Of a stretch of DNA of 64,000 nucleotides, positions 7,751-38,910 are shown piece after piece (position 1 is the stretch's first letter; each line of letters starts with the position of its first letter). The translations under genes were made by a program, and so were the position numbers. This stretch comes from Candidatus Moraniibacteriota bacterium (lineage in GTDB: Bacteria > Patescibacteriota > Minisyncoccia > Moranbacterales > DUUL01): contig JBFHIG010000006.1 of assembly GCA_041596615.1 (NCBI GenBank), forward strand, positions 145 through 64,144, read 5' to 3'. A model generated the notes under the pieces. It saw nothing but the letters and a program-made list of their open reading frames with translations. It did no database searches and was not told the DNA's origin.

Positions 7751-7850
7751 CTTTATTTAAGCCAATTTGAAGGCATAACCAATCAACTTCCAACTTCAAA
7801 GCGCTTAGAACTCAATTTTGAGCCTCGTTTTTTGGCTTAATTAAGGCATT
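7751..7850 (+). repeat. left copy of the prophage-bounding direct repeat (putative attL; identical core 7795-7850)
   Basis: 7751-7850 aligns with 38811-38910. The first 44 bp carry 7 mismatches and the last 56 bp are identical. Sequence diverges immediately after both copies. Confidence 0.75.
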
Positions 7851-8004
7851 TTTAAAGAGGTATGTTTTATGTTGTTTTGTAGCTCTTTAACTTTAGAATT
7901 AATAGGAATTTAAAGGAAAAGGAGGTATCTTTACTGCAAGATTACTAGAAGTGTTGTGAGAAGGAGATTGTGAATGTCTTTTGGGAATTCTTAAACAAAG
8001 CTTA

Positions 8005-8047
8005 TTAAACATGCTTAACGTCGCATAATATCTATTGTCAGCGCTAT
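8005..8047 (+). promoter_or_regulatory. two direct copies of A(A/T)CGTCGCATAA (candidate integrase arm-type sites, left arm)
   Basis: AACGTCGCATAA at 8007-8018 and ATCGTCGCATAA at 8036-8047. The same 12-mer recurs at 38512-38523, and inverted at 38530-38541, near the other prophage end. Confidence 0.4.
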
Positions 8048-8100
8048 CGTCGCATAACTAGATAAAGTCAGACCAAAAACACAATTTAAAGAAAACGTAA

Positions 8101-8127
8101 ACACGTCAGAAATGACGTGTTTTTTTG
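8101..8127 (+). terminator. intrinsic terminator
   Basis: ACACGTCA-GAAA-TGACGTGT (8-bp stem) followed by T7. Confidence 0.7.
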
Positions 8128-8186
8128 TACATCTAATTATTATTTTAAATTGATTGTTCGTGGGTGTTTCCAATCACAACAAATCG

Positions 8187-8864
8187 ATGAGAAAAATTAA
8201 AAAGTGGATTACGAAGCAAATTAAAAAAATGATGTTGAAGTTGAAAAACTGGATCATCAAAAAAATTAAAAAGGCATTTGAATCATTTAACGGATTCATT
8301 GCAAAGCAGACGTGGATTATCACATTATTCGCGTTAATCGGCGGGGGTTATGTTCTTTATTTATCAGGAAGCGTTTTTGTTCCTTATGTTGGACAGATGT
8401 TAGATGAAAAATTCACAAAAGTGATCATCATAGAAAATCCAACAATCAGAGAAGCTCATGCAGAGGAAGGGGAAACAATAGAAACAATCATTGAAGATGT
8501 GACGGAGGAAGTTATTCCAGAAACATCGTTAATCGAAGAGATTTCTAAAATCTTCCCAGAAGAGCCAGAAACGGCTATAGCAATCTTTAAAGCAGAAAGT
8601 GGTCTAAGTCTTAATGCAAAGGGTTGGAACTGTAGGTATAGCATAAATGGAACTGTGGTTAGCAAAGCCTGCAACCCAGAAGACAGACAAAATGCTTGGT
8701 CAGTTGATTGTGGAATAGCTCAAATTAATATTCCTGGAAAAGAATGTTCAAAAGAATTGCTAGGTTTAGATAAAAATCTTGAATTGGCAAGGGAAAAATA
8801 TCAACAAAGAGGATGGCACCCATGGACTGCTTATAAAAATAATTCATATAAAAAGTTTTTATAA
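8187..8864 (+). CDS. phage lytic transglycosylase / lysozyme-like (SLT domain) protein with N-terminal membrane anchor
   Basis: AIAIFKAESGLSLNA ... VDCGIAQINI resembles the SLT/goose-lysozyme-like catalytic region (Glu-Ser). The ATG at 8187 is preferred over the listed TTG at 8154. Confidence 0.65.
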   Translation: MRKIKKWITKQIKKMMLKLKNWIIKKIKKAFESFNGFIAKQTWIITLFALIGGGYVLYLSGSVFVPYVGQMLDEKFTKVIIIENPTIREAHAEEGETIETIIEDVTEEVIPETSLIEEISKIFPEEPETAIAIFKAESGLSLNAKGWNCRYSINGTVVSKACNPEDRQNAWSVDCGIAQINIPGKECSKELLGLDKNLELAREKYQQRGWHPWTAYKNNSYKKFL

Positions 8865-8868
8865 AAAA

Positions 8869-9024
8869 ATGGCAAAACATTCTTATCGAGGAAGTCGAAA
8901 CTCGAGAGCTAAAAGACAACAGAGCAAAATTTTCAAAGGGATGAAAATAGACGAAAAAGCTCAGGAAAAAGCATTTAAGCAAATAGAAAAAGAAAAACAA
9001 GATGCAGAAATACAAAAAAGGTGA
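8869..9024 (+). CDS. small basic phage protein, unknown function
   Basis: 51-aa Lys/Arg-rich ORF from the ATG at 8869, in frame with the listed ORF 8779..9024. Confidence 0.35.
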   Translation: MAKHSYRGSRNSRAKRQQSKIFKGMKIDEKAQEKAFKQIEKEKQDAEIQKR

Positions 9025-9739
9025 TTTCTTTCACTTTCCAAACAAAAGCATATTGCGTGGATTAGATGCTAAAGCACAGATTGTTTTTATGTGGTTATCC
9101 TCTTATGCAGATGAGGACGGTGTTTGTTTTCCTTCAAGAAGGACATTAGCAAATGACACAGGAATAAAATCATCAAGGACAATTGATAAAGCTATTAAGG
9201 TATTGGAAGAAATTGGACTTATAACAAAAGAAAATAGATTTAAAGAAAAAGAACAAAAGTCAAATTTATATCAAATTAATAATCTAGGAGGTAGTGCAAA
9301 AATTGCTCAGGGGGGTAGAGCAAAAATTGCTCCACCCAGAGCAAAAATTGCTCAGGGGGTAGAGCAAAAATTGCTCACAGAACTCAATCCAATTGAACTC
9401 ACTTCACTTAAGAGAGGGGACTCACCTAAAAATTACTTAGAAAAAATACCAAACGAGGACTTAGAAGCATGGGTTAAAAAATATAGGTGTAGTAGAAAAC
9501 AAATTCAAACACTAGCTACAAAATTAAAATTAGGATTAGTTAGTAAAGGGATTAACAAAAATGATTATAAAGCTTATCTGTTATCTAAAATTATAGAAGA
9601 TTTTCCAGAAAGAGAGATTAAAAATAATCTATTACCAAAAATCAAAAAGGAGGAACGAACACCAGAACAACAAAGAAAAATAGACAACATGTTGGAAGAA
9701 ATAAGAAAAAAACAAAGGTTTAAAAAACATGGAAACTAA
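9002..9739 (+). CDS. phage replication initiator-like winged-helix protein
   Basis: FPSRRTLANDTGIKSSRTIDKAIKVLEEIGLI is a typical wHTH of phage/plasmid replication-initiation (DnaD/RepO-like) proteins. The gene contains four iteron-like repeats. Confidence 0.6.
   Translation: MQKYKKGDFFHFPNKSILRGLDAKAQIVFMWLSSYADEDGVCFPSRRTLANDTGIKSSRTIDKAIKVLEEIGLITKENRFKEKEQKSNLYQINNLGGSAKIAQGGRAKIAPPRAKIAQGVEQKLLTELNPIELTSLKRGDSPKNYLEKIPNEDLEAWVKKYRCSRKQIQTLATKLKLGLVSKGINKNDYKAYLLSKIIEDFPEREIKNNLLPKIKKEERTPEQQRKIDNMLEEIRKKQRFKKHGN
9296..9376 (+). repeat. four iteron-like repeats GCAAAAATTGCTC inside the initiator gene (candidate phage origin)
   Basis: Copies at 9296-9308, 9320-9332, 9341-9353 and 9364-9376, spaced 24/21/23 bp. 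Copies 2-4 are small inverted repeats (GAGCAA-AAA-TTGCTC); copy 1 has a shorter arm (GTGCAA-AAA-TTGCTC). Confidence 0.6.
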
Positions 9740-10291: not shown

Positions 10292-10570
10292 ATGTTTAAA
10301 AAGCCGAAAAGAACAATCCACCTACAACTGAAAACTAAAAAATTTAAGCCAGTAATTGATCCTAGAATAAAATATAATGTTCTACCTGGGACAGTGAGAC
10401 TTGAAAAGGAAGAGACAGAATCAATCAGATTAGTTGATTATAAAGGATTGCAACAGAAAGAAGCTGCTAAAAAGATGAATACATCACAAAGCACAGTTCA
10501 AAGGATGCTTGCCAAGGGAAGAAAGAAAGTGGCCGATGCTTTGATAAATGCTAAGACAATCGAACTTTAA
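10292..10570 (+). CDS. small HTH DNA-binding protein (sigma-70 region-4-like / UPF0251-like)
   Basis: YKGLQQKEAAKKMNTSQSTVQRMLAKGRKKVADAL is a classic HTH with a following basic helix. Confidence 0.55.
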   Translation: MFKKPKRTIHLQLKTKKFKPVIDPRIKYNVLPGTVRLEKEETESIRLVDYKGLQQKEAAKKMNTSQSTVQRMLAKGRKKVADALINAKTIEL

Positions 10571-15375: not shown

Positions 15376-15933
15376 ATGTCCAAGTCCATCACCAAAAACA
15401 AACAACCTAAAAAGAAATCACCCAAAAAAGGCGTTAATTTAATGGCGCTTAAAAAGAAAATTGCTGCTAAAAATATTCAAAAAAAATCAACTCAAAAGAA
15501 GTTAGATAAGAAGGCAAAAATTGGAAGGCCGAAGAAGAATATTAAAGGGCAGGTATTAGATCCACAAACTGGAAAATTTAGAACTGGAAGGCCAGCTTCA
15601 ATAAATGACAGTGTACTCTATAAACTTGCGGAAGCTTTTTCTTATGGATGTAGCGACAAAGAGGCTTGCGTTTTTGCTGGAATAACTCCGTCGACACTTT
15701 ATAACTATCAAGAAAAAAACCCAGAGTTTTTGGAGCAAAAAGAGTGTTTCAAAAATCTCCCAACATTTAAAGCAAGAAAAACAATAGTGGATACCCTAGA
15801 TAAAGACGTAGAAAACGCTAAATGGTGGATGAAAAAAAAGAGAGCAAAAGAATTTGGTGATGATCCATCTGCTGGCCTGGCAGTACAATTCAACAACTTC
15901 AATTCATCTAAATATTTTGAAAAAGCAGAATGA
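15376..15933 (+). CDS. terminase small subunit (HTH type)
   Basis: A basic N-terminus is followed by LAEAFSYGCSDKEACVFAGITPSTLYNYQEKNPEF, a typical TerS HTH. It lies directly upstream of the large terminase. Confidence 0.6.
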   Translation: MSKSITKNKQPKKKSPKKGVNLMALKKKIAAKNIQKKSTQKKLDKKAKIGRPKKNIKGQVLDPQTGKFRTGRPASINDSVLYKLAEAFSYGCSDKEACVFAGITPSTLYNYQEKNPEFLEQKECFKNLPTFKARKTIVDTLDKDVENAKWWMKKKRAKEFGDDPSAGLAVQFNNFNSSKYFEKAE

Positions 15934-16124: not shown

Positions 16125-17129
16125 ATGCAACGAATAAACTACAAAGCATTCATAGAAGACAACTTCTCAATTAAAACGAGAAAAGGAGAAATAATCCCCT
16201 TTATTTTCAACACATTTCAGAATGCCTATTATTATCTGCTGATAAATGATTATCCAACAATGGAAAATCTTAGAGAAAATGTTTTAAAAGCACGTCAGCA
16301 AGGGGCTTCATCTCTAATCGATGCGATAATCACAACTGACTTTATTCTCTCAGCACTAGGAGACATCCCAGTTATTGGCTCACAGATAATTTCACATAAA
16401 GCACAAGAAGTTAAGCCGCTATTCTCAAGAATAGATCTGTACATCGATTCATTCCTTCATAAAAACAAAATTCAACGTAAAAGATTTTTAAAGTTTGATA
16501 ACCATAGCACCTACATGGAAGCGCACTCAGGTGCTGAAATCTTTGTTGGAACAGCAGGAGCAAAGACACTCGGACGAGGAGGAACATTGCAGAACATTCA
16601 CTGGTCAGAGCCAGCATTTTATCCTAATACACCAGTTCTAAATGCTAAGGATTTAGTAACAGGAGCGGAACAACAAGTCGGTGAAGGAATTGGAAAGATA
16701 TTCCGTGAATCAACCGGGAACACTCCGAGAGATTTCTTTGGCCAAGAGTATGCTAGAGGCAAGGAATGTTTAGGAGATTTTAAATCAAGATTCTTCCCCT
16801 GGTATTTGGAGAAATCATACACAAGAGCGATACCTAATGACCCACAAGAAAGAGCAAAAGTTTTCACACCAGAGTATGAGGCTAAGATGCAGAAATATAA
16901 AATAACACCCGAACAGATCTATTGGTATATCAAAAAGATTGAATCAAGAATGTCTAAACATGGCCAAGAGGAAGAGACTAGGGATGTTCTAACAATCAAA
17001 AGGGAATATCCATTTGATGACACAGATGCATTCTTGATGAGTGGTGACTGTTACTTTGATAGAAATGCTTTGAAGTTTTATAAGAATGAAGTCAGAGAGC
17101 CAATAACTGAGGGAGTTCTAATAATTTAA
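16125..17129 (+). CDS. terminase large subunit, ATPase domain (N-terminal piece of a split TerL)
   Basis: Walker A-like VLKARQQGASS, Walker B-like LQNIHWSE, coupling motif ESTGN and a REYPFDDTDAF region typical of TerL ATPase domains. The ORF stops where the inter-domain linker is expected. Confidence 0.7.
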   Translation: MQRINYKAFIEDNFSIKTRKGEIIPFIFNTFQNAYYYLLINDYPTMENLRENVLKARQQGASSLIDAIITTDFILSALGDIPVIGSQIISHKAQEVKPLFSRIDLYIDSFLHKNKIQRKRFLKFDNHSTYMEAHSGAEIFVGTAGAKTLGRGGTLQNIHWSEPAFYPNTPVLNAKDLVTGAEQQVGEGIGKIFRESTGNTPRDFFGQEYARGKECLGDFKSRFFPWYLEKSYTRAIPNDPQERAKVFTPEYEAKMQKYKITPEQIYWYIKKIESRMSKHGQEEETRDVLTIKREYPFDDTDAFLMSGDCYFDRNALKFYKNEVREPITEGVLII

Positions 17130-17199: not shown

Positions 17200-17379
17200 A
17201 TGGGAAAAGTTCAAAAACTAAGAAAACAAAGAAAAGACGCGCGAAAGGAATACAGGAAAGCAGCTGAAGCTTTCGAGAAAAGATTACGCCCACAAGATTT
17301 TTTAAAGGAAAGACCAAAATTCTTTTTATTCAGATGGATATTTAATGTTTGTGCCTTTATTGTTTTAAAGAAAAAATAA
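17200..17379 (+). CDS. small basic/hydrophobic ORF inserted between the two TerL pieces
   Basis: 59-aa ORF read by hand (MGKVQKLRKQRKDARKEY...FRWIFNVCAFIVLKKK). Its TAA (17377-17379) overlaps the ATG (17379-17381) of the nuclease piece. Confidence 0.35.
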   Translation: MGKVQKLRKQRKDARKEYRKAAEAFEKRLRPQDFLKERPKFFLFRWIFNVCAFIVLKKK

Positions 17380-18466: not shown

Positions 18467-18498
18467 ACGCATACGTTTTTTAACGTGTGCGTTTTTTT
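18467..18498 (+). terminator. intrinsic terminator upstream of the portal gene
   Basis: ACGCATACGTT / AACGTGTGCGT: an 11-bp stem with one G-U pair, a TTTT loop, then T7. Confidence 0.6.
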
Positions 18499-18501
18499 GT
18501 T

Positions 18502-25036: not shown

Positions 25037-25038
25037 AA

Positions 25039-26773: not shown

Positions 26774-29700
26774 ATGGCTCTTTTTGACCTGTATAAAAAA
26801 TTCAAAAAGAAAAAAGAAGAATCCTTTGCTCCAGTAAAACAAAGGACTTCTTCTGGTCTTGGTGCAATGGCACAGAAATTCAAAAATGGAATTGATGCAA
26901 AAATAGGAGATTTTAGCGATAGAGCTTTTGGGAATTTCAATAAAAGCAAAATGGGAGTTCAAAAAAAGGCTTCCAATTTTAGTGATGCTATTTTCAAGGA
27001 TTCTGCTCCAAAATGGATGCAAAGTGTCGATAGTGGATTAAGAAACTTTTCCAATAAAGCAGAGAATGCTCCTAAATTTAATTTTGCAGATAAAATTAAA
27101 AATCCAGTTGGAAAATTTGCAGCATCAATTCCTCAAGAAATAATGAATATTCCTTCTAGAACAGTCTCGGGAGCATTTAAAGACTACGGTAAAAGCAAGG
27201 CAACTCCATCATATCTTATTAAGAGAGGAGCAGAGGCTGCCAATATAGGGTTGGATATAGGTTCTTTATTTGTTGGTGGTAATACTGGAAAAAACCTTGT
27301 AAAAGAGGGATTTAACCAAATTGGTAAAAAAGGATTTAAAGAAACACTCAAAAATGGAGTTAAGCGAGGAGCTAAAGAAGGTCTTGCTTATGGTGCAAGC
27401 TCTGGTGCTCTCTCTGGCCTCCAGGAAGGGGATAGTCTCAAAGAACAAGGAAAAAATGCTATAAAAGGTGCTGTTAAAGGTGGTGCTATGGGTGCTGTTG
27501 CCGGCGGTGTCCTGGGAGGAGTTTCTCCAGCAGTAGGACAAGAAGTGAAAAGAACAATAAATGACATTAAGTTTGTCAAAAATCCTTATGCCAAGAGGAT
27601 TGCCACTAAATATGATTATAGTCCAGTTCCAGGAACATTTGCTCCTGGTGGAAAACCCCAAATGCAACCAATTGCTTCTAGTGAAAGAAAAGTTATTGAA
27701 ACTGTTAAATTGCCATTTCAGCCAAAAAGTATTCTCGGAAAATTAACGACTGCTAAGCCTGGATTAACCATTGAAGATGTTAGCAAAAAAGGTCCACAGG
27801 TAGTCTCATCTGTTGAAGTTGGACAATTGAAAGGTTTAGCTCAAAACGCACGCTCTAGTAGAAATTTTGAACAATTTGTGAATAGTTTAAAATCTGACAA
27901 AGATCTATATTCCAAAGCACTTATATTGAAAAACAAAGGTGTTACACTAAGAGATTTTTATAATCAATCAATAAAGACAAGTATTAAAGATGTTAGCAAA
28001 AAGTCAAAGCAAAATCCAAATCCAGAAAATATATTAAAGGAGCAAATAGGTGATATTTTTACAATACAGAAGCCAGTTTATGATTTATGGAAAAGCAAGG
28101 GGAATGTCATATACATCAAGCCAAATAGAGAAAACGCCGGATTTGGAAGTTGGCTCGGTGGCAAAAATTTTATTAAATCTGTGCAAGAAGCCGGCAACAA
28201 TGTATATAAAGTTACTTTAAAAACTCCATCTAAGCAATTCAAAGTAAATCAAAAATTTAAGAATGTTGTTGATATTCCAAAGGAAGATAAATTGAAAAAA
28301 CTTCAAGGAATAAATATCGAGAAAAAAATAACTCCAAAAAATGAGGTTAGCAAGGTTCTGGATGATATGATGAATAGCTTTGGTCCTGAAGGTCCTAGCG
28401 CCACCCCAGACTGGATTGTCAAAAAGAATAAAATGCGTGCAGATGTTGCAAGAAAAATTGCAAATCAAGACGCAAGAGATGCGGAACACCTTTCAAACGG
28501 TATTACAGCACCTCAAAAACAGGCTCAGGGGAGTCTTTTAGATAAAAATAAGGGAAATGTATCACAATCTCCTTTTAGAAGTAAATGGGAGGATAATTTT
28601 GACAACAATGGTAATTTAAAGAACGAAATGCGTGCTGAAGAGGTTATCCAGAAAAAAATAAATAACCGTCCTTATGTTAAACGAACCAATACTATTGATG
28701 ATATTTATGATACATATGTAAAAAATTCTAATGAGAATAGTAAACCTTTATTAGAAAAAACAAAGGATATTTTAGAGGTTACACCAGAGGGAAAAAGATC
28801 GAGACTCGGGATGCCAAATGAAACAAATATTTTAAATTATTCACAACAACTAAAGGCTATTGGTTATAAGAAAAAACAAATAGATAAAATTGGGTTTAAA
28901 GAGGCGGAAGGAATCATAGATAAGTTCAAAGCTAAGTATGATCCAGAATATTTAAATAAAAAAAATGAAATAGGTAAATTTAAAAAATTTGTTGCAGACT
29001 TTAAGCAAGCTGAAGAGGTTGGCATAGAAAGAGGACTTCAATTTTTGCAAAAATATTCTAAGTTGCCAAGAGAAAAAGCTGAAGAAATAATTTATCACTT
29101 AGATAATCCGACTAATGCTCCTGGAGATGTCGCTCCTTTTGTGAAAGAAATAAGAAATGAATTTGACACTTTCTTCAATGAAGCTCAAAAAGCTGGTCTA
29201 GATGTTGGGTATATCAAAAACTATATTACACACATTTGGAAAGAAGACCCTAAAGAAATAAGCAAAAAAATAGGGAAGGCTTTAAAGAAAGGAATCATAG
29301 GACCAGATGACATTGCTTCAATAGAGCAAGGTGCAACAAAGACTCCATTTTTCGGTTTTGCAAATTCAAGAATGCTAAAGAGTTATGAATTAGGGGAGAA
29401 AATTGGATTGCATAGAAAATATACGCATCCAGCACAGATTATTGGGCATTATGCGAAACAACTAGAAAGAGCTAAATCTGTCTTAAGAGGTATCAATAAT
29501 TTTAAAGAGTCTGGGGAAATTGTTGAGGGATTGCAACCTGGAATGAAGGCATTAACTATGCAAGGAGCAGAGGGATTATCAACTAACCCAAAACTTGCTG
29601 ATAAGTTAAATAATGCATTTAGAGATCCTTCAGAAGAGTATTACACGAATCTGGGTGGTAAGTCATTAGAAAAAGCTGCTGCAGTTTCAAGATGGCTAAA

Positions 29701-31669
29701 AGAGACATTGATGTCAGGAGGTATTCCAGCGACTACTGTAAATTCATACGGGATAAGCATGACACTCAAGGAAATAGGAACTTTATCACCAACAAGGGCT
29801 GCAAATGCAGTAAGTTCATTTGTTGCTGCTAATTCACCGAGGGCAAGTCGTAAATTTTTTATAGAAAATCTAGATCAGATTAAAAAGATAAAAAAGCATG
29901 ACATAAATCTATCAACAATGTTAGATCAAGGTGGATTTTTGGACAAAGGTTTCTTGGCGAATATTTTTGGAGAAAAAGGTAGCGGTATTGGTGGACATTG
30001 GAATGCGCTTATCAATGAGCCAACTTTCCAGAGATATTTACCAATGAATCAAGTTAAATTTTTTAATTCGATTGAAAAGAGATTATTAAAAAAAGGATAT
30101 TCCCAAGTAGATGCTGAGGCAATAGCTGCTAGGGAATTAAAAGAGGGAATGGGACTAGGAAGTGCAGCAAAACAACAAGCTAGGTCTCAATGGTCTAAGG
30201 ATATATTAGAGACAGCTTTTTTTGCGCCAACTCATAGAGCAAATATGTTTAGGGTTTTTGGTAATGCTTTGAAATCTTTCAGTAGAAACCCTCTTAAAAG
30301 AGGAAATCGATCTGCTACACAATTTCTAACAGGTGGGTTGGCTGTTTATGCCTTGTATGATTGGGTGAACTATAAAAATACAGGTCAACATTTATGGGAT
30401 AATCCTGAGGGTAAAAAGTTTGAGTCATATATAAAAATTGGGAACAATGGAGATTTAATTTCAATCCCCTTTATGCCATCAGTCGCAACAATGCCACGAC
30501 TTGGAATTAAGGTTGGCGAGAAATTATTTAAAGGAGATTTGAGTGGAGCACTTGGGAGCGCATGGCAAGGGAGTGGCTCTCTTTTATCGAAACCTCTCGC
30601 TGATGTTGCAACGAACAGCGATTATTTTGGGCGTAATATTTCTGATGAGGACGACTCTGTTTCTAAACAATGGTTAGATCGAGCAAAATATCTAGGCAAA
30701 TCATATACTGGGCACCCATGGGTTAAGGGAGGAATTGACTTTGCTTCTGGCAAACCAAACAGAGAGGTTTTGGCACAAATGACTGAGGCTCCAATAAGAT
30801 TTAGTACGGAAGGAAAAGTCGCCAGTAAGAAGTTCTGGGATACAAAAGAGAGGGTCAAAAACGTATATGAAGAATTCAGGGCATTGGCAAAAACTAATCC
30901 AGAAGGAGCTAATGAGTTTTATTATAAAAACAAAGAAGATATTGATTCTTGGCCAAAAATCAATGAGATTTCACAGATGTATTCAAATTTAAAAGGATCT
31001 GACAGAGAAACTTCTGATTTAAAAGAATTTACTTTTAGAGACAAATTCGGAGACATTGTAAATGATATAGGGTTTGGTTTTGGTAAAAATGCACAAGCTA
31101 AAGAATTGGAAAACGGTGATGAAATGAGCTCACCAATGCAAAAAATAATGCGTGGCTTTGAAATAGAACAAAAGAAGGTTGAATTAGCTAATTCAACTGA
31201 TAATTTTATGGATTTGGGAGATATCGTATTGAGAAAAAGTCTTGATGGAACAGTAAAACAAACAAGAAAGGATACTTTCACTTCACAAATTCTTCAGCAA
31301 AAAATGGAGGGCCAAAAAAGAAATGAAAATCTTAGCGGATGGATGAAGTCAGCGGAGGAAAAGTTTAGTTTAATGGAGGGAATGATGAATGATTCTAGTC
31401 TTGATGAATTAGATAAAAGCACAATTCAAAACGATATGGAGAGTCTGATGGAGACTTACATGAAGTACAAAAGTTACGGAGGATTCACTAAACCAAAAAA
31501 GGCGAAAAAGGCCAAAGATTTAGATCTCGATACCTCATTTATTGAACTTAAACTAATGAAAGAATTCGGTGGATCTAAAAAAGCAGCAAAGGCCATATTT
31601 AGACCTAGCACAAAAGGAATAAGCACAGTCTCAAGAAAACAACGCAAGATAATTTTAAGAAAAAAATAA
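26774..31669 (+). CDS. giant 1631-aa virion protein (internal core/ejection protein or tape-measure-like)
   Basis: The longest ORF in the window. It has a Gly/Ala-rich hydrophobic stretch (GAVKGGAMGAVAGGVLGGVSPAVG) and no enzymatic motif. It sits between the head and tail genes. Confidence 0.55.
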   Translation: MALFDLYKKFKKKKEESFAPVKQRTSSGLGAMAQKFKNGIDAKIGDFSDRAFGNFNKSKMGVQKKASNFSDAIFKDSAPKWMQSVDSGLRNFSNKAENAPKFNFADKIKNPVGKFAASIPQEIMNIPSRTVSGAFKDYGKSKATPSYLIKRGAEAANIGLDIGSLFVGGNTGKNLVKEGFNQIGKKGFKETLKNGVKRGAKEGLAYGASSGALSGLQEGDSLKEQGKNAIKGAVKGGAMGAVAGGVLGGVSPAVGQEVKRTINDIKFVKNPYAKRIATKYDYSPVPGTFAPGGKPQMQPIASSERKVIETVKLPFQPKSILGKLTTAKPGLTIEDVSKKGPQVVSSVEVGQLKGLAQNARSSRNFEQFVNSLKSDKDLYSKALILKNKGVTLRDFYNQSIKTSIKDVSKKSKQNPNPENILKEQIGDIFTIQKPVYDLWKSKGNVIYIKPNRENAGFGSWLGGKNFIKSVQEAGNNVYKVTLKTPSKQFKVNQKFKNVVDIPKEDKLKKLQGINIEKKITPKNEVSKVLDDMMNSFGPEGPSATPDWIVKKNKMRADVARKIANQDARDAEHLSNGITAPQKQAQGSLLDKNKGNVSQSPFRSKWEDNFDNNGNLKNEMRAEEVIQKKINNRPYVKRTNTIDDIYDTYVKNSNENSKPLLEKTKDILEVTPEGKRSRLGMPNETNILNYSQQLKAIGYKKKQIDKIGFKEAEGIIDKFKAKYDPEYLNKKNEIGKFKKFVADFKQAEEVGIERGLQFLQKYSKLPREKAEEIIYHLDNPTNAPGDVAPFVKEIRNEFDTFFNEAQKAGLDVGYIKNYITHIWKEDPKEISKKIGKALKKGIIGPDDIASIEQGATKTPFFGFANSRMLKSYELGEKIGLHRKYTHPAQIIGHYAKQLERAKSVLRGINNFKESGEIVEGLQPGMKALTMQGAEGLSTNPKLADKLNNAFRDPSEEYYTNLGGKSLEKAAAVSRWLKETLMSGGIPATTVNSYGISMTLKEIGTLSPTRAANAVSSFVAANSPRASRKFFIENLDQIKKIKKHDINLSTMLDQGGFLDKGFLANIFGEKGSGIGGHWNALINEPTFQRYLPMNQVKFFNSIEKRLLKKGYSQVDAEAIAARELKEGMGLGSAAKQQARSQWSKDILETAFFAPTHRANMFRVFGNALKSFSRNPLKRGNRSATQFLTGGLAVYALYDWVNYKNTGQHLWDNPEGKKFESYIKIGNNGDLISIPFMPSVATMPRLGIKVGEKLFKGDLSGALGSAWQGSGSLLSKPLADVATNSDYFGRNISDEDDSVSKQWLDRAKYLGKSYTGHPWVKGGIDFASGKPNREVLAQMTEAPIRFSTEGKVASKKFWDTKERVKNVYEEFRALAKTNPEGANEFYYKNKEDIDSWPKINEISQMYSNLKGSDRETSDLKEFTFRDKFGDIVNDIGFGFGKNAQAKELENGDEMSSPMQKIMRGFEIEQKKVELANSTDNFMDLGDIVLRKSLDGTVKQTRKDTFTSQILQQKMEGQKRNENLSGWMKSAEEKFSLMEGMMNDSSLDELDKSTIQNDMESLMETYMKYKSYGGFTKPKKAKKAKDLDLDTSFIELKLMKEFGGSKKAAKAIFRPSTKGISTVSRKQRKIILRKK

Positions 31670-31670
31670 A

Positions 31671-32306
31671 ATGGAAACAATTCAAGAGGTTCTGCAAAAT
31701 GTTCATGTTGAGTACGAAAAGAATACAGATTATCCGGAAGCATCTTCTGAGGATTTTGTTGTACGTCTTGCTTATGCTAATCGTGGAATAGCTACTTGGG
31801 AGAAAGAAGCTCGAGATAATGTTCAGTGGCCAGAGCTTAAAGAAGATGGTGAGGTTGCTGCAAATGGAACAGGTCTTGATTCTCTTCCAGATAATTTCTT
31901 TAGCTTCATAAGAGCAGATGAACACCCAGCAGTTATTTCCGATGGAAAGACTCAATGGCTCGAGGTGAGAATGGGGGAGGGAAGAAGAATGAAACAAGAT
32001 AATTTAAGCCCTAATGTATTTTGGATTGAAGCTGGAAAAATAAGGACTCTTCCTGCAATTTCAGGAACTATATATTTTCCTTATATCAGAAAAGCAACTA
32101 GATATTCAACTGGCGTAGAAACTGATGCTTTAGATGTTGATCCTGAATATTTGCTCGAGTATGTTTTAGGAAAATTATATTTAGATGATAAGAATTTCAA
32201 TATTGCACAGGTACATTTTGATAATGCAAAAGATATTTTAGATAGCAAAAAATATCAATTAATCACTGGGACTCCTTCAGAATCTAGTTTCGGGATAGGA
32301 ATGTAA
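31671..32306 (+). CDS. tail/adaptor protein (tail-tubular-A-like by size and position)
   Basis: 211 aa, starting 2 nt after the giant ORF. Confidence 0.4.
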   Translation: METIQEVLQNVHVEYEKNTDYPEASSEDFVVRLAYANRGIATWEKEARDNVQWPELKEDGEVAANGTGLDSLPDNFFSFIRADEHPAVISDGKTQWLEVRMGEGRRMKQDNLSPNVFWIEAGKIRTLPAISGTIYFPYIRKATRYSTGVETDALDVDPEYLLEYVLGKLYLDDKNFNIAQVHFDNAKDILDSKKYQLITGTPSESSFGIGM

Positions 32307-32318
32307 ATTATTTAAACA

Positions 32319-34301
32319 ATGCGTAAAATCAATTTTAGACAATCGAATCAAGAATCTCCCTGGAAAATGGAATTAGATGATTTTTCAGGGGGTAGTGCAA
32401 CACTTCTTGATGATGCGCTTCTTGGAAAAAAATATGCCAAAGAGCTAATAAACATGATTCAGGTTCAAGACGGAAGAAATAAAGTTCGACCAGGAACTGC
32501 TTTTTATGGAGCTGCTATTCCTGGAGAATCTGAAATATTAGGGGCTGGGGAATATATTAAAAACGATGGAGCAAGGGAACTTGTTGCAATTGGTGCAACA
32601 ACTGGGAAAGGATACAGCTCAATTGATGGAGGAGCTTGGAGTGAAATCACTGGAGCGATATTTGATATTAACGCAAAGCAACCATTTTTCAAACAGATTA
32701 ATAATTATTTATTTGTATGTAATGGAGCCGATCCGTTAACTAGATACAATGGTTCTGTTTTTACTAGGTATACAACTATCAGCGCACCTACAGGATTTGC
32801 AGGCGTGAGAGGCGCAGGATTAACTGCTGGCAGTTATCACAATTATTACAAAGTAACAGCGCTTAATGATGTTGGTGAAACAGTCGGAAGTTCAGAAATT
32901 GATGTTACTTCAAACAAAGAAAGAAGTGTTTGGAATTCAGTTAGTAACGAATATGTTTCATTATCCTGGACAGCAGTAAGTGGAGCAACAAAATATCAAG
33001 TTTATTATTCTGAATCAGCAGGAGAAGAAACTCTTTTAGCCAATGTAGAATCAAATAGTTATAAAGACGACAACTCTAATGTCTCAAATCCTTTTGTGCT
33101 TTGCCCAGACGTAGATACAACTGGAGCGCCAAAGTTTTCAATGATTTCAATGAGTGGCTCAAGAATTTGGGGTGTGGCACCGGATGAACATCCTTACAGA
33201 GTTTTTTATTCAGGTACTGGCCAATATCTAGGATATTTCGCTGATGCTTATGGTGGTGGATGGGTTGATCTTGATAAAGGAGGAAGAGAGACAGTACAAT
33301 TTGTTGAGCATTATCGAACTGGAAAAGGTGATAGTGCTGCAACCGTTTTTTGTAAAACACCAGAAGGAACTGGTGCTATTTGGCAAATTTCACTTGAGGC
33401 TTATCCGATAGGTGATTCTACAATTATTGTTCCTAGCCCTCAAAAGATTGTCGGTTCAATTGGAACTGATGCTCCTGGAGCAGTGGTTAAAGCAATGGAT
33501 TCATTGATTTTCCCGAACAAAAAAGGTGTATTCAATCTTGGAAATAAAGCTCAGGTAACAAATGTTTTATCTACTGATGAACTAAGCGGAAATATTCGTC
33601 CTTCATATAGATCACTATTTTTATCCAGGATTGGTCAAATGGCTGGATATTGGTATGATGCAAAAATTTTCTTTTCAGCTCCAGAGGGAGATGGAGAAAA
33701 TGATATGACATTCATCAATGACACAGAAAGAAAGAATTGGAACTGGAAATGGACAATTGGATTTAAACAGTTCTTGGAATATACGGACTCAGATGGAAAC
33801 ACAAAGTTTTTAGGTGTAAAGCCAGGAGAGCCACAACTCATTGAAATCTCAGACAATTTCTTAAGTGATTTAGGAAAACCAATCAAAACATCATATATCA
33901 GCGGACTTTTTCCTATAGATGAGAAAGACCAGTCGGAATTTGCAAAAGTTGATGAGGTGATTGTTGTGCTTGGACGACCAAAGGGAACTATTAATATTGA
34001 AGTTCTTGGTTTAGAGAAAAAAAGAGGTTTTTCATCGATTAAAACAAAGCAGATAACGGATACCTTGCAGGTCAATGAATTTTGGACTGGAGATTTAGGA
34101 GAGATAACCTTGAAAGACGAGGAAGATGCTCCAAAAACTTATTCCCAAGCAACAGTTAAAAAGAGAATAAAAATCGGAAAGGAATTAAACGGAATCCAAT
34201 TTCATATCTATTCAAATTCTATCAATGTAGATTATACAATTTTACATATCCAAGCCAAGGGAACAATCACACCAACACGACCACCTTCGAGTTGGAACTA
34301 A
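32319..34301 (+). CDS. tail protein with fibronectin-type-III-like insertion (tail-tubular-B/nozzle-like by size and position)
   Basis: 660 aa. YYKVTALNDVGETVGSSEIDV ... VSLSWTAVSGATKYQVYYSE is a typical FN3 pattern. Confidence 0.5.
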   Translation: MRKINFRQSNQESPWKMELDDFSGGSATLLDDALLGKKYAKELINMIQVQDGRNKVRPGTAFYGAAIPGESEILGAGEYIKNDGARELVAIGATTGKGYSSIDGGAWSEITGAIFDINAKQPFFKQINNYLFVCNGADPLTRYNGSVFTRYTTISAPTGFAGVRGAGLTAGSYHNYYKVTALNDVGETVGSSEIDVTSNKERSVWNSVSNEYVSLSWTAVSGATKYQVYYSESAGEETLLANVESNSYKDDNSNVSNPFVLCPDVDTTGAPKFSMISMSGSRIWGVAPDEHPYRVFYSGTGQYLGYFADAYGGGWVDLDKGGRETVQFVEHYRTGKGDSAATVFCKTPEGTGAIWQISLEAYPIGDSTIIVPSPQKIVGSIGTDAPGAVVKAMDSLIFPNKKGVFNLGNKAQVTNVLSTDELSGNIRPSYRSLFLSRIGQMAGYWYDAKIFFSAPEGDGENDMTFINDTERKNWNWKWTIGFKQFLEYTDSDGNTKFLGVKPGEPQLIEISDNFLSDLGKPIKTSYISGLFPIDEKDQSEFAKVDEVIVVLGRPKGTINIEVLGLEKKRGFSSIKTKQITDTLQVNEFWTGDLGEITLKDEEDAPKTYSQATVKKRIKIGKELNGIQFHIYSNSINVDYTILHIQAKGTITPTRPPSSWN

Positions 34302-34325
34302 TATTAATTATTTATAAACAAAAAA

Positions 34326-35462
34326 ATGGGTGCACAAAACACAGACTTATTATTGAAAGTAGCTTCTAACACTGGTTGGCAATTAGGTGCTTCAGGTATT
34401 CCAGATGCAGAGATTGAAACCGCTGGGCTTGTTTCAGCAGCAGGACTTCCACAGGATACAGCCGTATTAGTGACTATTGATAGAGTTGACCAAAATGGGA
34501 ACAAAACGCCAAGTAAAATGGAGCGTGTTATTGGAGTTGTTTCAGGCGATAACTTAGTCAGTTGTCTTCGAGGAGTAGAGGGAACAGCACAGGGACATTC
34601 CGGCGGAGCTGTTGTTGAAATTGTTATTTGCGCAAGCAATATAAATAAATTGATGCAAGCGATTCTAGCAGAACACAATCAGGATGGGAGCCATGGAAAT
34701 GTTAATGCAGAGAATGTTAAAGCAACTGGATTGGAAATCTCTAGTGTCACTTGGGAAAATCTAATAAAAGGGTGGTTTGAAGCTGGGGAAGCTTGGGCTT
34801 ATGTCGCTACCAATAAATTTAAGATAGAGGGAGTTGATCTAACAGCAAAATATACTAAAGGGGCAAAAATCAAACTTATTAATAACTCTGTTGTCAAATA
34901 TTTTTATGTTGTAACAAGTGTGTTTTCTACTGACACAACAGTGACTGTAACTGGAGAAGTAGACTTAGTCGATTCAGAAATTACACTTCCTTTTTATTCT
35001 TATAATGATTGTCCTCAGGGGTTTAAACGAGGAGAAGATTGGTATAGAGCAAGGGTCTATCGTAATGCGGCACAAACAGCAAATGAAGCAGTTTATACTA
35101 AAATTTTATATGATACTGAAAATTATGACCCCAACAATAATTTTGCTTCTTCTGGATATACAGCCCCGGTATCTGGATATTATAATATCAATACGCACGT
35201 TTCTGTAGCTTTAGCGGGGGCAACATTATCTGCACTACTTTCTACTATAGATGTAAATTCCGTTCCTGTAACAACTGGATCAAGAATCGGTGGAGGTTAT
35301 TCACCACAAATAACGGCTAGTATAGCTACAGACATAATCTATCTAAACAAAGGAGATGTTGTTACTAGCACAGTCTATCAATCTACTGGGGCTAATAGGG
35401 TTATTGAAGTGGTATCAACCGGCAGTAGAAATTATATGTCTATCCAATTTGTCGGAGTATAA
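34326..35462 (+). CDS. tail fibre / receptor-binding protein
   Basis: The N-terminal CLRGVEGTAQGHSGGAVVE motif is common in phage tail-fibre N-termini. The C-terminal half is beta-rich. Confidence 0.55.
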   Translation: MGAQNTDLLLKVASNTGWQLGASGIPDAEIETAGLVSAAGLPQDTAVLVTIDRVDQNGNKTPSKMERVIGVVSGDNLVSCLRGVEGTAQGHSGGAVVEIVICASNINKLMQAILAEHNQDGSHGNVNAENVKATGLEISSVTWENLIKGWFEAGEAWAYVATNKFKIEGVDLTAKYTKGAKIKLINNSVVKYFYVVTSVFSTDTTVTVTGEVDLVDSEITLPFYSYNDCPQGFKRGEDWYRARVYRNAAQTANEAVYTKILYDTENYDPNNNFASSGYTAPVSGYYNINTHVSVALAGATLSALLSTIDVNSVPVTTGSRIGGGYSPQITASIATDIIYLNKGDVVTSTVYQSTGANRVIEVVSTGSRNYMSIQFVGV

Positions 35463-35489: not shown

Positions 35490-35690
35490 ATGAACCAAGA
35501 AACAAAAGAAAATATTGAAAGACATCTTAAGTCATTCGTCCTAACCTACATCACAACATTCTTTATTTTGTATACTGCACTGGTTACAGAGGAATCAATG
35601 TTTGATCTTGTTATTATCGGAAATGTCGCTAAGGTTGCACTTTTATCAATCGTGAGAAATCTCGTTAAGTTGTATACGGATAAAAAATGA
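35490..35690 (+). CDS. holin candidate
   Basis: 66 aa with two hydrophobic helices and a charged C-terminus. First gene of the lysis cassette. Confidence 0.5.
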   Translation: MNQETKENIERHLKSFVLTYITTFFILYTALVTEESMFDLVIIGNVAKVALLSIVRNLVKLYTDKK

Positions 35691-35935
35691 GTAAAGACAT
35701 TGTAACTCAAAAAGAGTGTTCAGAAATAAACAAGGAGGTAATGAGAAAAATAGATGATGTAAAAAAGGATATCGGAGATGTAAAGCTTCAGATTGCAGGT
35801 TTGCCAAAGGATTTAGCAGATGAATTCGATAAAAGATATGCTACAAAAAAGACGGAGAAAACTGTTGATAAGGTTGTCTGGATTGTGGTTGTTGCTTTTG
35901 TATTGGCAGTTTTAGAACTTATATTAAAAAAATAA
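35687..35935 (+). CDS. XhlA-like lysis-associated membrane protein
   Basis: 82 aa: an N-terminal coiled coil (KECSEINKEVMRKIDDVKKDIGDVKLQI) and a single C-terminal TM helix, as in XhlA-family proteins of phage lysis cassettes. Confidence 0.5.
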   Translation: MSKDIVTQKECSEINKEVMRKIDDVKKDIGDVKLQIAGLPKDLADEFDKRYATKKTEKTVDKVVWIVVVAFVLAVLELILKK

Positions 35936-35946
35936 TAATTACAAAA

Positions 35947-36516
35947 ATGATTTATAAAATCAAAACACGAGACAAGCGCTATGAAATCGAAGCTGATAAT
36001 CAAAAAGAGGCTTTGATGAATTTAGTTGGCCAAGGAGAAATCCAGATTGATGAGCAGAAAGTTGAAGAATTTGAAATATACAACCAACTTCTTTATCGAG
36101 GAATTAAGTTTGGAACAAAGAGATCTACCGATATGGCAGATTATGGTTGCAAGCTTTTTACTTTTGCTATTATCTTGCAAAGAGATCCTATTGAGCTAGA
36201 CAAGTTTTTTTGTGAAAAGAATGTTTATTTTGGAACTTCCGGAGATCTGATTGATGATGTAGCAGTTGCAAAAGCTTTAGGATGGGAATTCAACGGAAGA
36301 GATTATAACATCGATCACATGCCAATTCTTTCACCTACAATCAAGGAGGTTGATTTTAGTCCTGCACCTGGCAAACAACAGCATTTTGTTGTTAGATGCG
36401 TTGATGAAACTGGCCGATACATCCTGGACCCATTTGGAGGAGCAAGAAGAAAAATCAATTATTACGAAGAAAAATCGCATCAATTTGTTAGTTATCGGGT
36501 TTTTGAAGTGAAATAA
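35947..36516 (+). CDS. endolysin candidate, papain-like cysteine peptidase
   Basis: DMADYGCKLFTFAIIL ... GKQQHFVVRCVD ... YILDPFGG is the same Cys/His/Asp layout as the host ORF 5507..6784 C-terminus. It is the last gene of the lysis cassette. Confidence 0.55.
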   Translation: MIYKIKTRDKRYEIEADNQKEALMNLVGQGEIQIDEQKVEEFEIYNQLLYRGIKFGTKRSTDMADYGCKLFTFAIILQRDPIELDKFFCEKNVYFGTSGDLIDDVAVAKALGWEFNGRDYNIDHMPILSPTIKEVDFSPAPGKQQHFVVRCVDETGRYILDPFGGARRKINYYEEKSHQFVSYRVFEVK

Positions 36517-37159: not shown

Positions 37160-37353
37160 GCAAAGCTATCTATTAAATGATAGGTATCAATTAAAAATTC
37201 ATAGCAACTTGTGTCCGTCAGGACAGTGCCGAAAGGTATTTTGGGAAGACAAGTGGTTTTGTGATATACTTATAACAGACAGAAATTTTATTCAAAACAA
37301 AATTCTGTTATTCTATCTATTTTATTATAGATAGTTTGTAAAAGTCGCTCATT

Positions 37354-37395
37354 AGCCGAAAGTTTCCCAACTGACGGCAGTGGGCGGCTTTTTTT
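37354..37395 (+). terminator. intrinsic terminator abutting the integrase start codon
   Basis: AGCCG...CGGCT forms the outer stem and CCCA(A)CTG-ACGG-CAGTGGG the inner stem. T7 ends 2 nt before the ATG at 37398. Confidence 0.55.
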
Positions 37396-37397
37396 AC

Positions 37398-38261
37398 ATG
37401 AACAAAGAAATTGAAAACTACTTAGCGTGGAAAGGGACTTATGCAACTAGGGCTTGTAATAATTATCGCATTTGGTTGGAAAGATTTAATAACAGGACCA
37501 AAAAATCAATTGGGGATGTCAACATCGACGATATAATCAAATTTAATTCTTATTTAAAAACAAAATTTCAACCAACCACAATCCAATATGCAACAATAAT
37601 CATCAAGAATTTTTTTGAGTTCCATAAGCTCCAAGGGGTGTCTTGCATCTCTCCAAGCATCATCAAAGTTCCGAGAGCAACAGCCTGCTCATATCAGCCA
37701 ATAGTTAAGGACGAGTGCCTTAGATTGCTATCAGAAATTGATACAAGCTCTTTTGTTGGGCTACAAAGAAATATTATGGTTAGGATTCTTTATGAGACGG
37801 GGATTCGTGTAAGTGAATTAACTGATCTCAATGTTAGTTCAATTAATACCTCAAATAAATCTGCAATTATATCAACAAAAAAAACTACTCAAAAAAGAAG
37901 GATAGTGTGGGGAAGTGAGACCAATTCCCTATTATGTGATTTTATAAAAATAAGAAAAAGTATAAATACAAATCCGGCACTTTTTATTGGAACAAAGGCA
38001 GGTGGGGAAGTAAGTAACAGAATAACAACAAGATCTGTTCAACGGACAATAAAATTGTTATGTGAGAAAGCTGAAATAGTATCAAAAATAACTCCGCATA
38101 GTTTTCGCCATGGTAAAGCTCACAGAATTTTAGAATCCGGAGGAAACCCAAAAGATGTCCAGGCAATACTTGGACATGTAAATCCAGTATCAAGTTTTGT
38201 TTATTTGCAATGGAACGACATGGAATTTGAAAAAAGGGCCAGAATGTTCGTAGAAAACTAG
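37398..38261 (+). CDS. tyrosine integrase (XerC/XerD-like, with N-terminal SAM-like domain)
   Basis: ETGIRVSELTDL (Arg), HSFRHGKAH (H-x-x-R) and LGHVNPVSSFVYL (His ... Tyr). It is the terminal gene next to the right repeat. The ATG at 37398 is preferred over the listed GTG at 37380, which lies inside the terminator. Confidence 0.85.
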   Translation: MNKEIENYLAWKGTYATRACNNYRIWLERFNNRTKKSIGDVNIDDIIKFNSYLKTKFQPTTIQYATIIIKNFFEFHKLQGVSCISPSIIKVPRATACSYQPIVKDECLRLLSEIDTSSFVGLQRNIMVRILYETGIRVSELTDLNVSSINTSNKSAIISTKKTTQKRRIVWGSETNSLLCDFIKIRKSINTNPALFIGTKAGGEVSNRITTRSVQRTIKLLCEKAEIVSKITPHSFRHGKAHRILESGGNPKDVQAILGHVNPVSSFVYLQWNDMEFEKRARMFVEN

Positions 38262-38290
38262 ATTATTGGTATATTTCTGCACTACCATAA

Positions 38291-38370
38291 AAGGCTTAGT
38301 TAAGCCAAAAAACGAGGCTCAAAATTGAGTTCTAAGCGCCTAAATAATAAAAGTTGATTAGTTATACCTT
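38291..38370 (-). repeat. third, inverted copy of the att-repeat sequence immediately after the integrase gene
   Basis: The reverse complement contains GCGCTTAGAACTCAATTTTGAGCCTCGTTTTTTGGCTTAA (40 bp identical to both bounding repeats) plus a diverged ATAAC(T/C)AATCAACTT part. Confidence 0.75.
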
Positions 38371-38416
38371 TAAAATACTATAACTAAGGGCTTAATCTGG
38401 CATTTTGATTAAATTG

Positions 38417-38445
38417 TTGACGGTCTTGCATCAATATGCTATAAT
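38417..38445 (+). promoter_or_regulatory. near-consensus sigma-70 promoter pointing toward attR
   Basis: TTGACG (38417-38422), a 17-nt spacer, then TATAAT (38440-38445). It is followed by an A/C-rich ~45-nt stretch and a weak hairpin plus T6 (38484-38500). Confidence 0.55.
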
Positions 38446-38511
38446 AGCGGTACAGTACAAAAAAACAAAATAAAACAAACAAAACACTGACGTGTTTTTT
38501 AAAAAAGGTTT

Positions 38512-38541
38512 AACGTCGCATAATATACATTGTGCGACGTT
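38512..38541. promoter_or_regulatory. palindromic pair of AACGTCGCA(T/C)AA motifs (candidate integrase arm-type or regulator site, right arm)
   Basis: AACGTCGCATAA (38512-38523) and its inverted partner TTGTGCGACGTT (38530-38541). Confidence 0.4.
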
Positions 38542-38810
38542 ACATATATAACCGTTCCAAGACGTTTCTGTTGCCACAGAGACAAAGTCATCCTAGTCTT
38601 TTAATTGCCCCGCTCTTTCCCAGCTCTTATACTTATAAATTAGATTAAGTTTATTTTTATTAAACCTTCCTAGAACGTCCATTAACCTTTTGTCATAAAT
38701 TACCCAAATTTGATTTTTGAGCTTTAGTTTGGTTTTTCATTGCTTAGTTTTATGTGCTAACGCCTATATTGAAAAAATAATACAAAAACCTCTACAAACC
38801 CTCACAAGAG

Positions 38811-38910
38811 CTTTATTTAAGGCATTTTAAGGGCATAACCAATCAACTTGCGATTTCAAAGCGCTTAGAACTCAATTTTGAGCCTCGTTTTTTGGCTTAA
38901 TTAAGGCATT
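38811..38910 (+). repeat. right copy of the prophage-bounding direct repeat (putative attR; identical core 38855-38910)
   Basis: See 7751-7850. The offset between the two copies is 31,060 bp. Confidence 0.75.

Follow-up and report, generated by a model that had tools for sequence, protein, structure and literature searches.

Here, we describe an apparently intact, podophage-type prophage of 30,495 bp that is present in the genome of an uncultivated Candidatus Moranbacteria bacterium, within a 64,000-nt stretch of DNA (hereafter, the window; positions 145 to 64,144 of contig JBFHIG010000006.1, assembly GCA_041596615.1). The phage probably integrated site-specifically into a native dif-like palindrome at the replication terminus of its host, bringing its own Xer-like tyrosine recombinase (Int), and the long direct repeats around it, which a first-pass annotation of the same DNA had taken for attL and attR, are native to the host. 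Comparison with related loci (given below by their L numbers) shows that both repeats are native, that the insertion lies at the terminus, that one of its ends carries an intact and the other a hybrid copy of the palindrome, that int is followed by the dif-like site in related prophages too, and that the layout is permuted in a free, non-integrated relative.

Empty sites and the native repeats

The nearest relative, a Candidatus Moraniibacteriota metagenome-assembled genome (MAG; L002) with a GltX 89% identical to that of the window, shares the gene order of both flanks but not the 31-kb block. Five more phage-free loci, from two further species (L009-L011 and L012-L013), were reached through homologues of the flanking PD-(D/E)XK nuclease; their synteny runs from GltX to RlmN. 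The search of relatives for an unoccupied site, proposed in the first-pass annotation, was therefore successful: the insertion is absent from L002 and L009-L013, and its ends in the window carry a defined junction repeat. In all five of the latter loci, the empty-site interval, from a small upstream gene to an S26 peptidase gene, spans ~900 bp and consists of the small gene, one copy of a ~100-nt element, 208-236 bp, the palindrome, 284-296 bp, a direct second copy of the element, and the peptidase gene. Because phage-free relatives hold both copies, the repeat pair is native and was not made by the phage.

The first-pass annotation had placed the crossover inside a 56-bp identical core of this element, with 7751-7850 and 38811-38910 as attL and attR and a prophage of ~31.06 kb. 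The repeat itself was confirmed as a direct repeat of 104 nt (7750-7853 and 38810-38913) with 92% identity, the last 56 nt being identical (7795-7850 and 38855-38910) and the mismatches in a pairwise alignment of the two copies being confined to the first 44 nt. Three things speak for that model: the repeat is highly significant (a 42-nt stretch of the core has 0 matches expected by chance in shuffled sequence); attachment sites that duplicate the 3' end of a gene classically show such a diverged arm next to an identical core; and the integrase gene is terminal. However, a repeat generated by integration should occur once in an empty site, and every intact empty site (L009-L013) holds two copies, 548-588 bp apart. 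Moreover, 38481-38810 is collinear with phage-free L002, as part of an alignment that extends to 39113 (sensitive alignment of 38481-39113, E 4e-30), so that the DNA is host-like again from 330 bp left of the proposed attR. A further copy, missed in the first pass, is borne by the phage beside int and is inverted with respect to both others, an arrangement that simple integration cannot yield, and the free genome L031 has a dif-like site at attP and no direct-orientation copy of the element. It is the dif-like palindrome, not the ~100-nt repeat, that related phages and prophages carry or end at. We consider attachment at the repeat extremely improbable.

The 30-nt core of the element, CTTAGAAC-CAATTTTGAGCCTCGTTTTTT, is nearly invariant across species (consensus CTTA(A/G)AAC(G/T)CAATTTTGAGCCTCGTTTTTT), and direct copies lie ~200-320 bp either side of the native palindrome. 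An inverted copy is located between int and the site in L029, as in the window. Dispersal of the repeat over unrelated loci, which the first-pass annotation had named as grounds for abandoning its model, was observed in part: one copy was found in a different organism, in unrelated genomic surroundings (L008, ~1700-1800, minus strand), and an exact search of genome and viral collections with the repeat core gave no match. A structured RNA was considered for the element and not upheld: RNAalifold gave only one weak hairpin of 7 bp, in which one pair is compensatory, Rfam gave no match, and folds of the single sequences did not convince (copy A, z = -3.3; copies B and C, about -1). The inverted copy was likewise considered as attP and ruled out by its orientation. 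The element could act as a terminator shielding dif or as an accessory site, or it could encode a small RNA.

Prophage junctions

The true boundaries appear to coincide with two dif-like sites at 8018-8045 and 38513-38540, which replace the limits of 7751 and 38910 and the ~31-kb size first proposed and give a prophage of 30,495 bp. The native site is a non-coding, 28-bp near-palindrome with an 11-6-11 layout, ACGTCGCATAA-TATACA-TTGTGCGACGT. The 28-mer at attR is identical to that of phage-free L009-L013, and attL shares with attR the 17-mer TTAACGTCGCATAATAT (8015-8031 and 38510-38526), the two occurrences being 30,495 bp apart. Two direct repeats, and no others, flank the block: one is the native element, and the other is a 37-nt family (8002-8038 and 38497-38533) at these sites.

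Three copies of the half-site CGTCGCATAA are present in the 64 kb, all of them at the two ends of the block, against 0 expected; an extra half-site directly follows the degenerate arm of attL (Table 1). A similar third half-site was seen by eye after attP in L031 (~11330-11340). The comparison suggests that a three-half-site architecture is conserved on the early-gene side of the phage. Chimeric assembly does not account for the left junction, because 7811-11099, including the integrated attL, is reproduced at 100% identity in an independent assembly of that strain in Logan (L155). The strain is present in the source sample SRR29257459. Searches of viral contigs with the junction 25-mer, and with the pattern of the site preceded by T2 (a short hairpin with a T-run; Table 1), gave no match.

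A candidate dif at the replication terminus

The window spans the replication terminus of the Candidatus Moranbacteria chromosome. GC skew changes from positive (up to ~38 kb) to negative (beyond 41 kb), the gene strand flips at ~40.7 kb, and in six loci of several species, with or without the phage, the cumulative GC skew peaks at a distance of 0.08-3.1 kb from the site. To the right of the site, a Cas4-like PD-(D/E)XK nuclease (DUF2800) and a Pif1-family helicase (39562-42619) have the look of a mobile element; because their position is kept in all phage-free relatives (L002, L009-L015), they are considered host genes of the terminus region.

The criteria applied to the dif site of Legionella are a length of ~30 bp, low GC content, a palindromic sequence, location at the terminus and a non-coding context (PMC9765430). 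Since the palindrome shares these properties, lies at the terminus and is conserved, it fits dif, and it is most likely the functional dif of a single-recombinase Xer system. Alternatively, it could be a dedicated attB of this phage family, or another conserved hairpin or operator near the terminus: an 11-bp hairpin could form at the site in RNA or DNA, viral contigs often carry the motif close to packaging genes, and both the host Xer gene and the genome-wide uniqueness of the site lie outside the reach of a single contig. However, the 28-mer is identical in three species (including L009-L013), and is thus perfectly conserved in phage-free species, although the adjoining intergenic DNA no longer aligns; the 11-6-11 layout with a TATACA/TGTATA-type centre resembles known dif sites; in six loci the skew switch falls at the site; and in L002 both arms are altered together (ATGTCGC...GCGACAT). 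An identity other than dif seems very unlikely on these grounds. No description of dif or Xer for these organisms, which belong to the Patescibacteria or Candidate Phyla Radiation (CPR), was found in the searchable literature.

Related phages and distribution of the motif

Homologues of Int with 52-70% identity are encoded on contigs with the same tail module (L029-L034), and capsid-family homologues occur on contigs equal in length to the int-bearing ones. The dif-like palindrome is found 244-538 bp past int in L029, L030, L032/L033 and L034; opposite-strand host genes directly follow it in L032 and L034, and the contigs of L029 and L030 end at the site. The order in L029 (the 29.4-kb Logan contig SRR26541468_3056) is that of the window (int, inverted element, promoter, T2, site), and its site combines a C-variant left arm with an A-variant right arm, as expected of a phage/host hybrid. 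L031 is non-integrated and permuted, with tail genes, int, a small helix-turn-helix (HTH) gene, a promoter, a half-degenerate site, a hairpin and early genes, one of which matches 10859-11134 of the window. The half-degenerate site of L031, ATGTCGCAAAA-GACTGA-TTGCCCGACTG, with one good and one degenerate arm, is the predicted attP. The first gene after it has the same position as the first phage gene of the window (8154-8864) and a similar size (226 aa), with no detectable sequence similarity. Protein-led searches of viral contigs with the recombinase and with the replication initiator gave no match.

The motif GTCGYAWAA-N6-TTGTGCGAC was found in at least 120 IMG/VR contigs (L035-L154), against roughly 10 or fewer by our estimate of chance occurrence, with TGTATA/GATATA/TACATA-type centres and outer bases that often co-vary. 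In these contigs, the motif frequently neighbours large terminases, some of which contain inteins, and portals of the SU10 type, and a tyrosine recombinase is encoded nearby in only one of them among the matches listed. Such contigs may represent integrase-less tailed phages that exploit dif, and the distribution of the motif hints that targeting of dif is common among these phages. An assignment of some of the motif contigs to inoviruses with a Zot-like ATPase found no Pfam support and was withdrawn.

The phage recombinase and the proposed course of integration

Among solved structures, Int matches archaeal XerA best (5hxy, 1.5e-20, full-length alignment), followed by XerD and XerH, and among NCBIfam models XerA, XerD and XerC, with scores below every curated equivalog cutoff (XerA 153.5/220; XerD 119/329.6; XerC 112.5/335; XerS 57/267). 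The protein has a two-domain, ~290-aa build, with a Pfam Phage_integrase match (8e-29), a sub-threshold SAM-like N-terminus (25.7 bits, cutoff 27) and a catalytic signature recognised by inspection (R143, H240-x-x-R243, H266 and Y275). Syntenic relatives without the phage lack the gene, which is always linked to phage tail genes and thus is not a chromosomal housekeeping gene. Like the single-recombinase Xer/dif systems (archaeal XerA/dif, XerH/difH, XerS/difSL and XerL), the system described here combines an 11-6-11 palindromic terminus site with a recombinase nearest to XerA, XerD and XerC; unlike in those systems, the recombinase is phage-borne and falls below all equivalog cutoffs. The terminal tyrosine integrase and the direct repeats outside the phage genes are reminiscent of lambda-type prophages, from which the present one differs in that the long repeat predates the phage, the identity at the junctions is confined to 17 nt inside a dif-like core site, and Int (293 aa, with a SAM-like N-terminus) lacks an arm-binding N-terminal domain.

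We infer that Int performs integration, alone or together with a host Xer protein. The phage circle would carry, between int and the early genes, an attP that mimics dif with one good and one degenerate arm, and crossover with the host site would occur within or next to the shared 17-mer, leaving an intact dif on the int side (attR) and a crippled hybrid on the other side (attL). With attR fully intact, dimer resolution should be preserved; with the altered centre and degenerate right arm of attL, Xer-driven loss of the prophage should be limited. The prophage is presumably inducible, and the predicted junction of the excised circle reads ...AAAAAAGGTTTAACGTCGCATAATAT|CTATTGTCAGCGCTATCGTCGCATAAC..., with ~38526 joined to ~8032. 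In the predicted empty site, the intact 28-mer would come straight after 7853...8017 and be followed by the DNA from 38541 on, and the two element copies would remain.

Comparable arrangements have been reported for integrative mobile elements that exploit Xer (IMEXs), in which attP is a dif mimic and one of the recombined junctions regenerates a canonical dif (PMC12715192). The sites of TLC-phi and the gonococcal genetic island (GGI) have one good and one divergent arm (PMC5357621), and in IMEXs, the gonococcal island and the Legionella phage LME-1, the combination of an intact and a modified junction preserves dimer resolution and stabilises the insert (PMC12715192, PMC9765430, PMC5357621). 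The prophage described here resembles the IMEXs (CTX-phi, VGJ-phi, TLC-phi, GGI, dif-type double jelly-roll phages and gokushoviruses) in its predicted dif-mimic attP, its location at a presumably functional chromosomal dif, and its one intact (38513-38540) and one modified (8018-8045) junction. It could be a true IMEX, integrated at dif by the host Xer machinery like LME-1, CTX-phi, TLC-phi and GGI, with the phage-encoded Xer-like protein serving multimer resolution, excision or directionality; the shape of the junctions would agree with this, as would the motif contigs, almost all of which have no recombinase nearby. However, in this phage family the recombinase gene always lies beside attP or attR and is co-inherited with it across the 52-70% identity range, the usual signature of an acting integrase, and IMEXs by definition have no integrase, whereas an Xer-like recombinase gene adjoins the site in the window and in L029-L034. 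Integration by the host recombinase in place of Int is, in our assessment, rather unlikely. Furthermore, LME-1 aside, the IMEXs in the cited papers are filamentous or tailless phages or genomic islands, whereas the prophage in the window is a 30-kb tailed phage.

LME-1 is a short-tailed phage that integrates at the ~30-bp palindromic terminus dif of Legionella via host XerL, in what is presumed to be a single-recombinase system; wild-type dif persists at one end of the prophage, which is stabilised by a modified dif at its other end (PMC9765430, PMC12407071). The phage described here is similarly a temperate podophage with an HK97-fold capsid, integration at a palindromic terminus site, and one intact and one modified end. 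Unlike LME-1, which uses host XerL, it encodes its own XerA-like recombinase beside attP, and its host is a CPR bacterium; the link between the two phages is a fold-level capsid match only.

Gene content and completeness of the prophage

Scans of the window proteins against PHROG and Pfam profiles, as recommended in the first-pass annotation, and against NCBIfam, together with the HK97 capsid fold and the iterons, bear out that the block is a phage (Table 1). Profile support was obtained for the replication initiator, the small terminase subunit (TerS), the nuclease part of the large terminase subunit (TerL), the portal, the capsid and two tyrosine recombinases. From the gene list drawn up in the first pass, the initiator with its iterons, TerS, the TerL nuclease part, a portal (of the SU10 type), the capsid and the recombinase were upheld; the transglycosylase and the endolysin had no hidden Markov model (HMM) support, and the latter (35947-36516, 189 aa) shows a weak C39-like Cys motif alone.

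The HK97 fold of the product of 21706-22851 was confirmed in an AlphaFold2 model built from 54 homologues (predicted local distance difference test score 86.7, predicted template modelling score 0.82). A Foldseek search with this model yielded 177 PDB matches at E <= 0.001, and 50 of the 50 among the matches listed are capsids of phages or phage satellites, the podophages HRP29, T7, P22 and LME-1 (9eg4, E 2.7e-6) among them. IMG/VR contigs hold portals 57-62% identical to the one in the window, and sequence searches of solved structures with the N-terminal TerL part and with the portal gave no match. Because no tail tube, sheath or tape-measure gene was seen in the phage block and faint SU10_adaptor matches occur in the tail-module homologues of L031 and L034, the designation short-tailed is reasonable. 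With a Candidatus Moraniibacteriota MAG as the nearest relative, the proposal of a temperate, short-tailed phage in a small-genome, uncultivated host has held up as well. The SU10-type portal (a marginal, profile-level match at 30.9 against a cutoff of 30), the faint SU10_adaptor matches in relatives, the lack of a visible tail tube or sheath and the giant virion protein are shared with SU10-like (Kuravirus-type) podophages, from which the phage differs in its 30-kb genome, temperate lifestyle and CPR host.

The block could be a defective or domesticated remnant, considering that TerL is split, that no repressor or excisionase is recognisable, that a non-coding gap of 860 bp precedes int, and that several genes have no family support. 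Conversely, the terminase of the related IMG/VR phage L017 is likewise split at the same position (7453-8286 and 8812-9474, the insert being 250-525 bp across both phages), so that the split is considered a family trait and not a frameshift or decay. The structural modules are uninterrupted and 40-67% identical to those of IMG/VR and Logan phage contigs, and both att sites and int are intact. Decay to a remnant is accordingly judged unlikely.

As stated in the first pass, no CI/Cro-type repressor is recognisable within the block, and only two of its genes are on the minus strand (24482-25455). Candidate controllers of lysogeny are the small HTH protein (10292-10570), the minus-strand pair and the conserved outward promoter (38417-38445). 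Promoter-like sequences were seen by eye at the corresponding position in L029-L034, in L030-L034 downstream of the small HTH gene. In the circle, the promoter would point across attP at the early genes, and in the prophage it points at host DNA; it may produce an RNA of ~50 nt. Located ~40 nt downstream of it are the hairpin T2 and its T-run, both in the window and in L029 (~11020-11105).

The second, 208-aa recombinase might partner the degenerate arm, resolve multimers or act as an invertase. A moron-like island (23421-25455) separates head and tail genes; its S26-like peptidase and the host S26-like gene that adjoins dif (39104-39511) are paralogues (32% identity), and a minus-strand S26-like gene is kept in the related phages L017-L019. 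Exact look-up of the host S26 peptidase gave no match. PADLOC identified no defence system in the phage apart from a weak match to a four-transmembrane (4TM) effector. The ~860-bp stretch between the lysis genes and int (36517-37379) is AT-rich, contains no convincing open reading frame (ORF), and holds a bidirectional terminator-like hairpin with a 19-bp stem (36568-36610) and a tandem repeat of 23 nt x 2 (36922-36965). Searches for tRNA, tmRNA and Rfam families in the 64-kb window, L009 and both junction regions returned chance-level matches alone, none at threshold.

Table 1. Coordinates of features of the prophage and its integration site; positions refer to the window unless a locus is named
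Feature	Position	Strand	Remarks
Native host element, copy 1 ('attL' of the first-pass annotation)	7750..7853	+	Core 7804-7833; host DNA
attL, hybrid dif-like site	8018..8045	+	ACGTCGCATAA-TATCTA-TTGTCAGCGCT; left arm intact, centre altered, right arm degenerate
Extra half-site TCGTCGCATAA	8047..8057	+	Direct orientation, right after degenerate arm
T1, terminator-like hairpin	8099..8129	+	10-bp stem and T-run, between attL and first phage gene; similar hairpin after attP in L031
First phage gene	8154..8864	+	SLT-like by eye only; no HMM match
Replication initiator	9002..9739	+	HTH_36/lambda O-like; phrog_270, 1e-18
Iterons, 24 nt x 4	9286-9377		Inside initiator gene
Sigma-70 region-4-like small HTH protein	10292..10570	+	Candidate regulator
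Second tyrosine recombinase, 208 aa	13274..13900	+	phrog_216, 1.7e-43; among early genes
Terminase small subunit (TerS)	15376..15933	+	phrog_4102, 1.3e-15
TerL N-terminal part, putative ATPase	16125..17129	+	Weak PHROG match; assigned by position and the same split in L017
TerL C-terminal nuclease part	17379..18062	+	phrog_24361, 5e-15; 43-49% amino acid identity (tblastx) in L017 and L018
Portal, SU10 type	18487..20307	+	PF23899, 30.9 bits, cutoff 30
Major capsid protein, HK97 fold	21706..22851	+	phrog_267, 2e-9; AlphaFold2 model
SocA/Panacea-domain antitoxin-like gene and partner gene	23421..24301	+	PF13274, 8e-23; moron-like
Membrane protein (weak 4TM-effector match) and S26/S24-like peptidase	24482..25455	-	Only two minus-strand genes
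1631-aa virion protein	26774..31669	+	ORF; homologues of 1529-2117 aa at same position in L029-L034
Tail module	31671..35462	+	Adaptor-like 211-aa, 660-aa and fibre-like 378-aa proteins; 41-67% amino acid identity in L029-L034
Putative lysis cassette	35490..36516	+	66-aa membrane protein, XhlA-like 82-aa protein, 189-aa protein; all three weak
Xer-like tyrosine recombinase (Int), 293 aa	37380..38261	+	NCBI start 37398, 287 aa
Phage-borne inverted element copy	38285..38385	-	Core 38307-38336; 24 bp past Int stop codon; missed in the first pass
Promoter, strong sigma-70 type	38417..38445	+	TTGACG-17-TATAAT, extended -10; 11/12 matches; points toward att site
T2, short hairpin and T-run	38482..38500	+	Directly upstream of attR; common to L029 and L002
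attR, intact dif-like site	38513..38540	+	ACGTCGCATAA-TATACA-TTGTGCGACGT; int side; unique in window
Native host element, copy 2 ('attR' of the first-pass annotation)	38810..38913	+	Core 38864-38893
Element cores in relatives	L009 8799-8828, 9387-9416; L012 8871-8900, 9419-9448		

Discussion

Several points weigh against integration of the phage at a terminus dif as set out above. The support is comparative throughout, and comes from sequence rather than from an enzyme or an excision product. The palindrome is unique within the 64-kb contig, which is the extent covered, and the host Xer gene likewise lies beyond this contig. The 24 nt upstream of attR (T2), assigned to the phage, also lie upstream of the site in phage-free L002, which fits the proposed integration only if L002 retains a remnant of a related prophage; the T2 sequence is not found upstream of the site in L009 or L012. 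L002 may be such a remnant, because in its interval 13702-14351 the core of element copy 1 is missing and two extra small ORFs (69 and 54 aa) are present, and because T2 is shared with the phage side of the window; the two ORFs have no detectable similarity to the phages compared, and the idea is unproven. For the host DNA that separates element copy 1 from attL (7854-8017), no homologue could be detected in any of the relatives. Intactness of the phage is not proven, because TerL is split and several annotations (the lysin, the first gene and the N-terminal TerL part) have no HMM support. Finally, the motif may have additional or different roles in phages, given that most of the IMG/VR contigs that carry it have no recombinase nearby and that it is often located near terminase genes.

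The prophage does not constitute a new category, because prophages have already been reported in Patescibacteria (PMC12455944) and a dif-integrating podophage, LME-1, exists. The findings provide a candidate dif for a CPR lineage, and point to a family of tailed phages that would target dif with their own Xer-like recombinase, a strategy between integrase-driven lysogeny and the hijacking practised by IMEXs, with LME-1 as the nearest precedent. As attP, attB, attL and attR are predicted to the base, the identity of the acting recombinase and the role of the degenerate arm are open to direct test. The case also carries a methodological warning, in that a long, significant direct repeat with an identical core around a prophage may be a pre-existing feature of the host; here, it was recognised as such only because of the empty sites in relatives.

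It is possible, and we propose it only tentatively, that a widespread family of Moranbacteria (CPR) podophages, equipped with their own XerA-like recombinase and a half-degenerate dif mimic, lysogenises at dif and rebuilds dif on the int side, that the ~100-nt elements are accessory parts of an undescribed Xer/dif system of Patescibacteria, and that the phages represented by the at least 120 IMG/VR contigs exploit the same system. The motif may serve as a marker of both prophages and replication termini in CPR metagenome bins.

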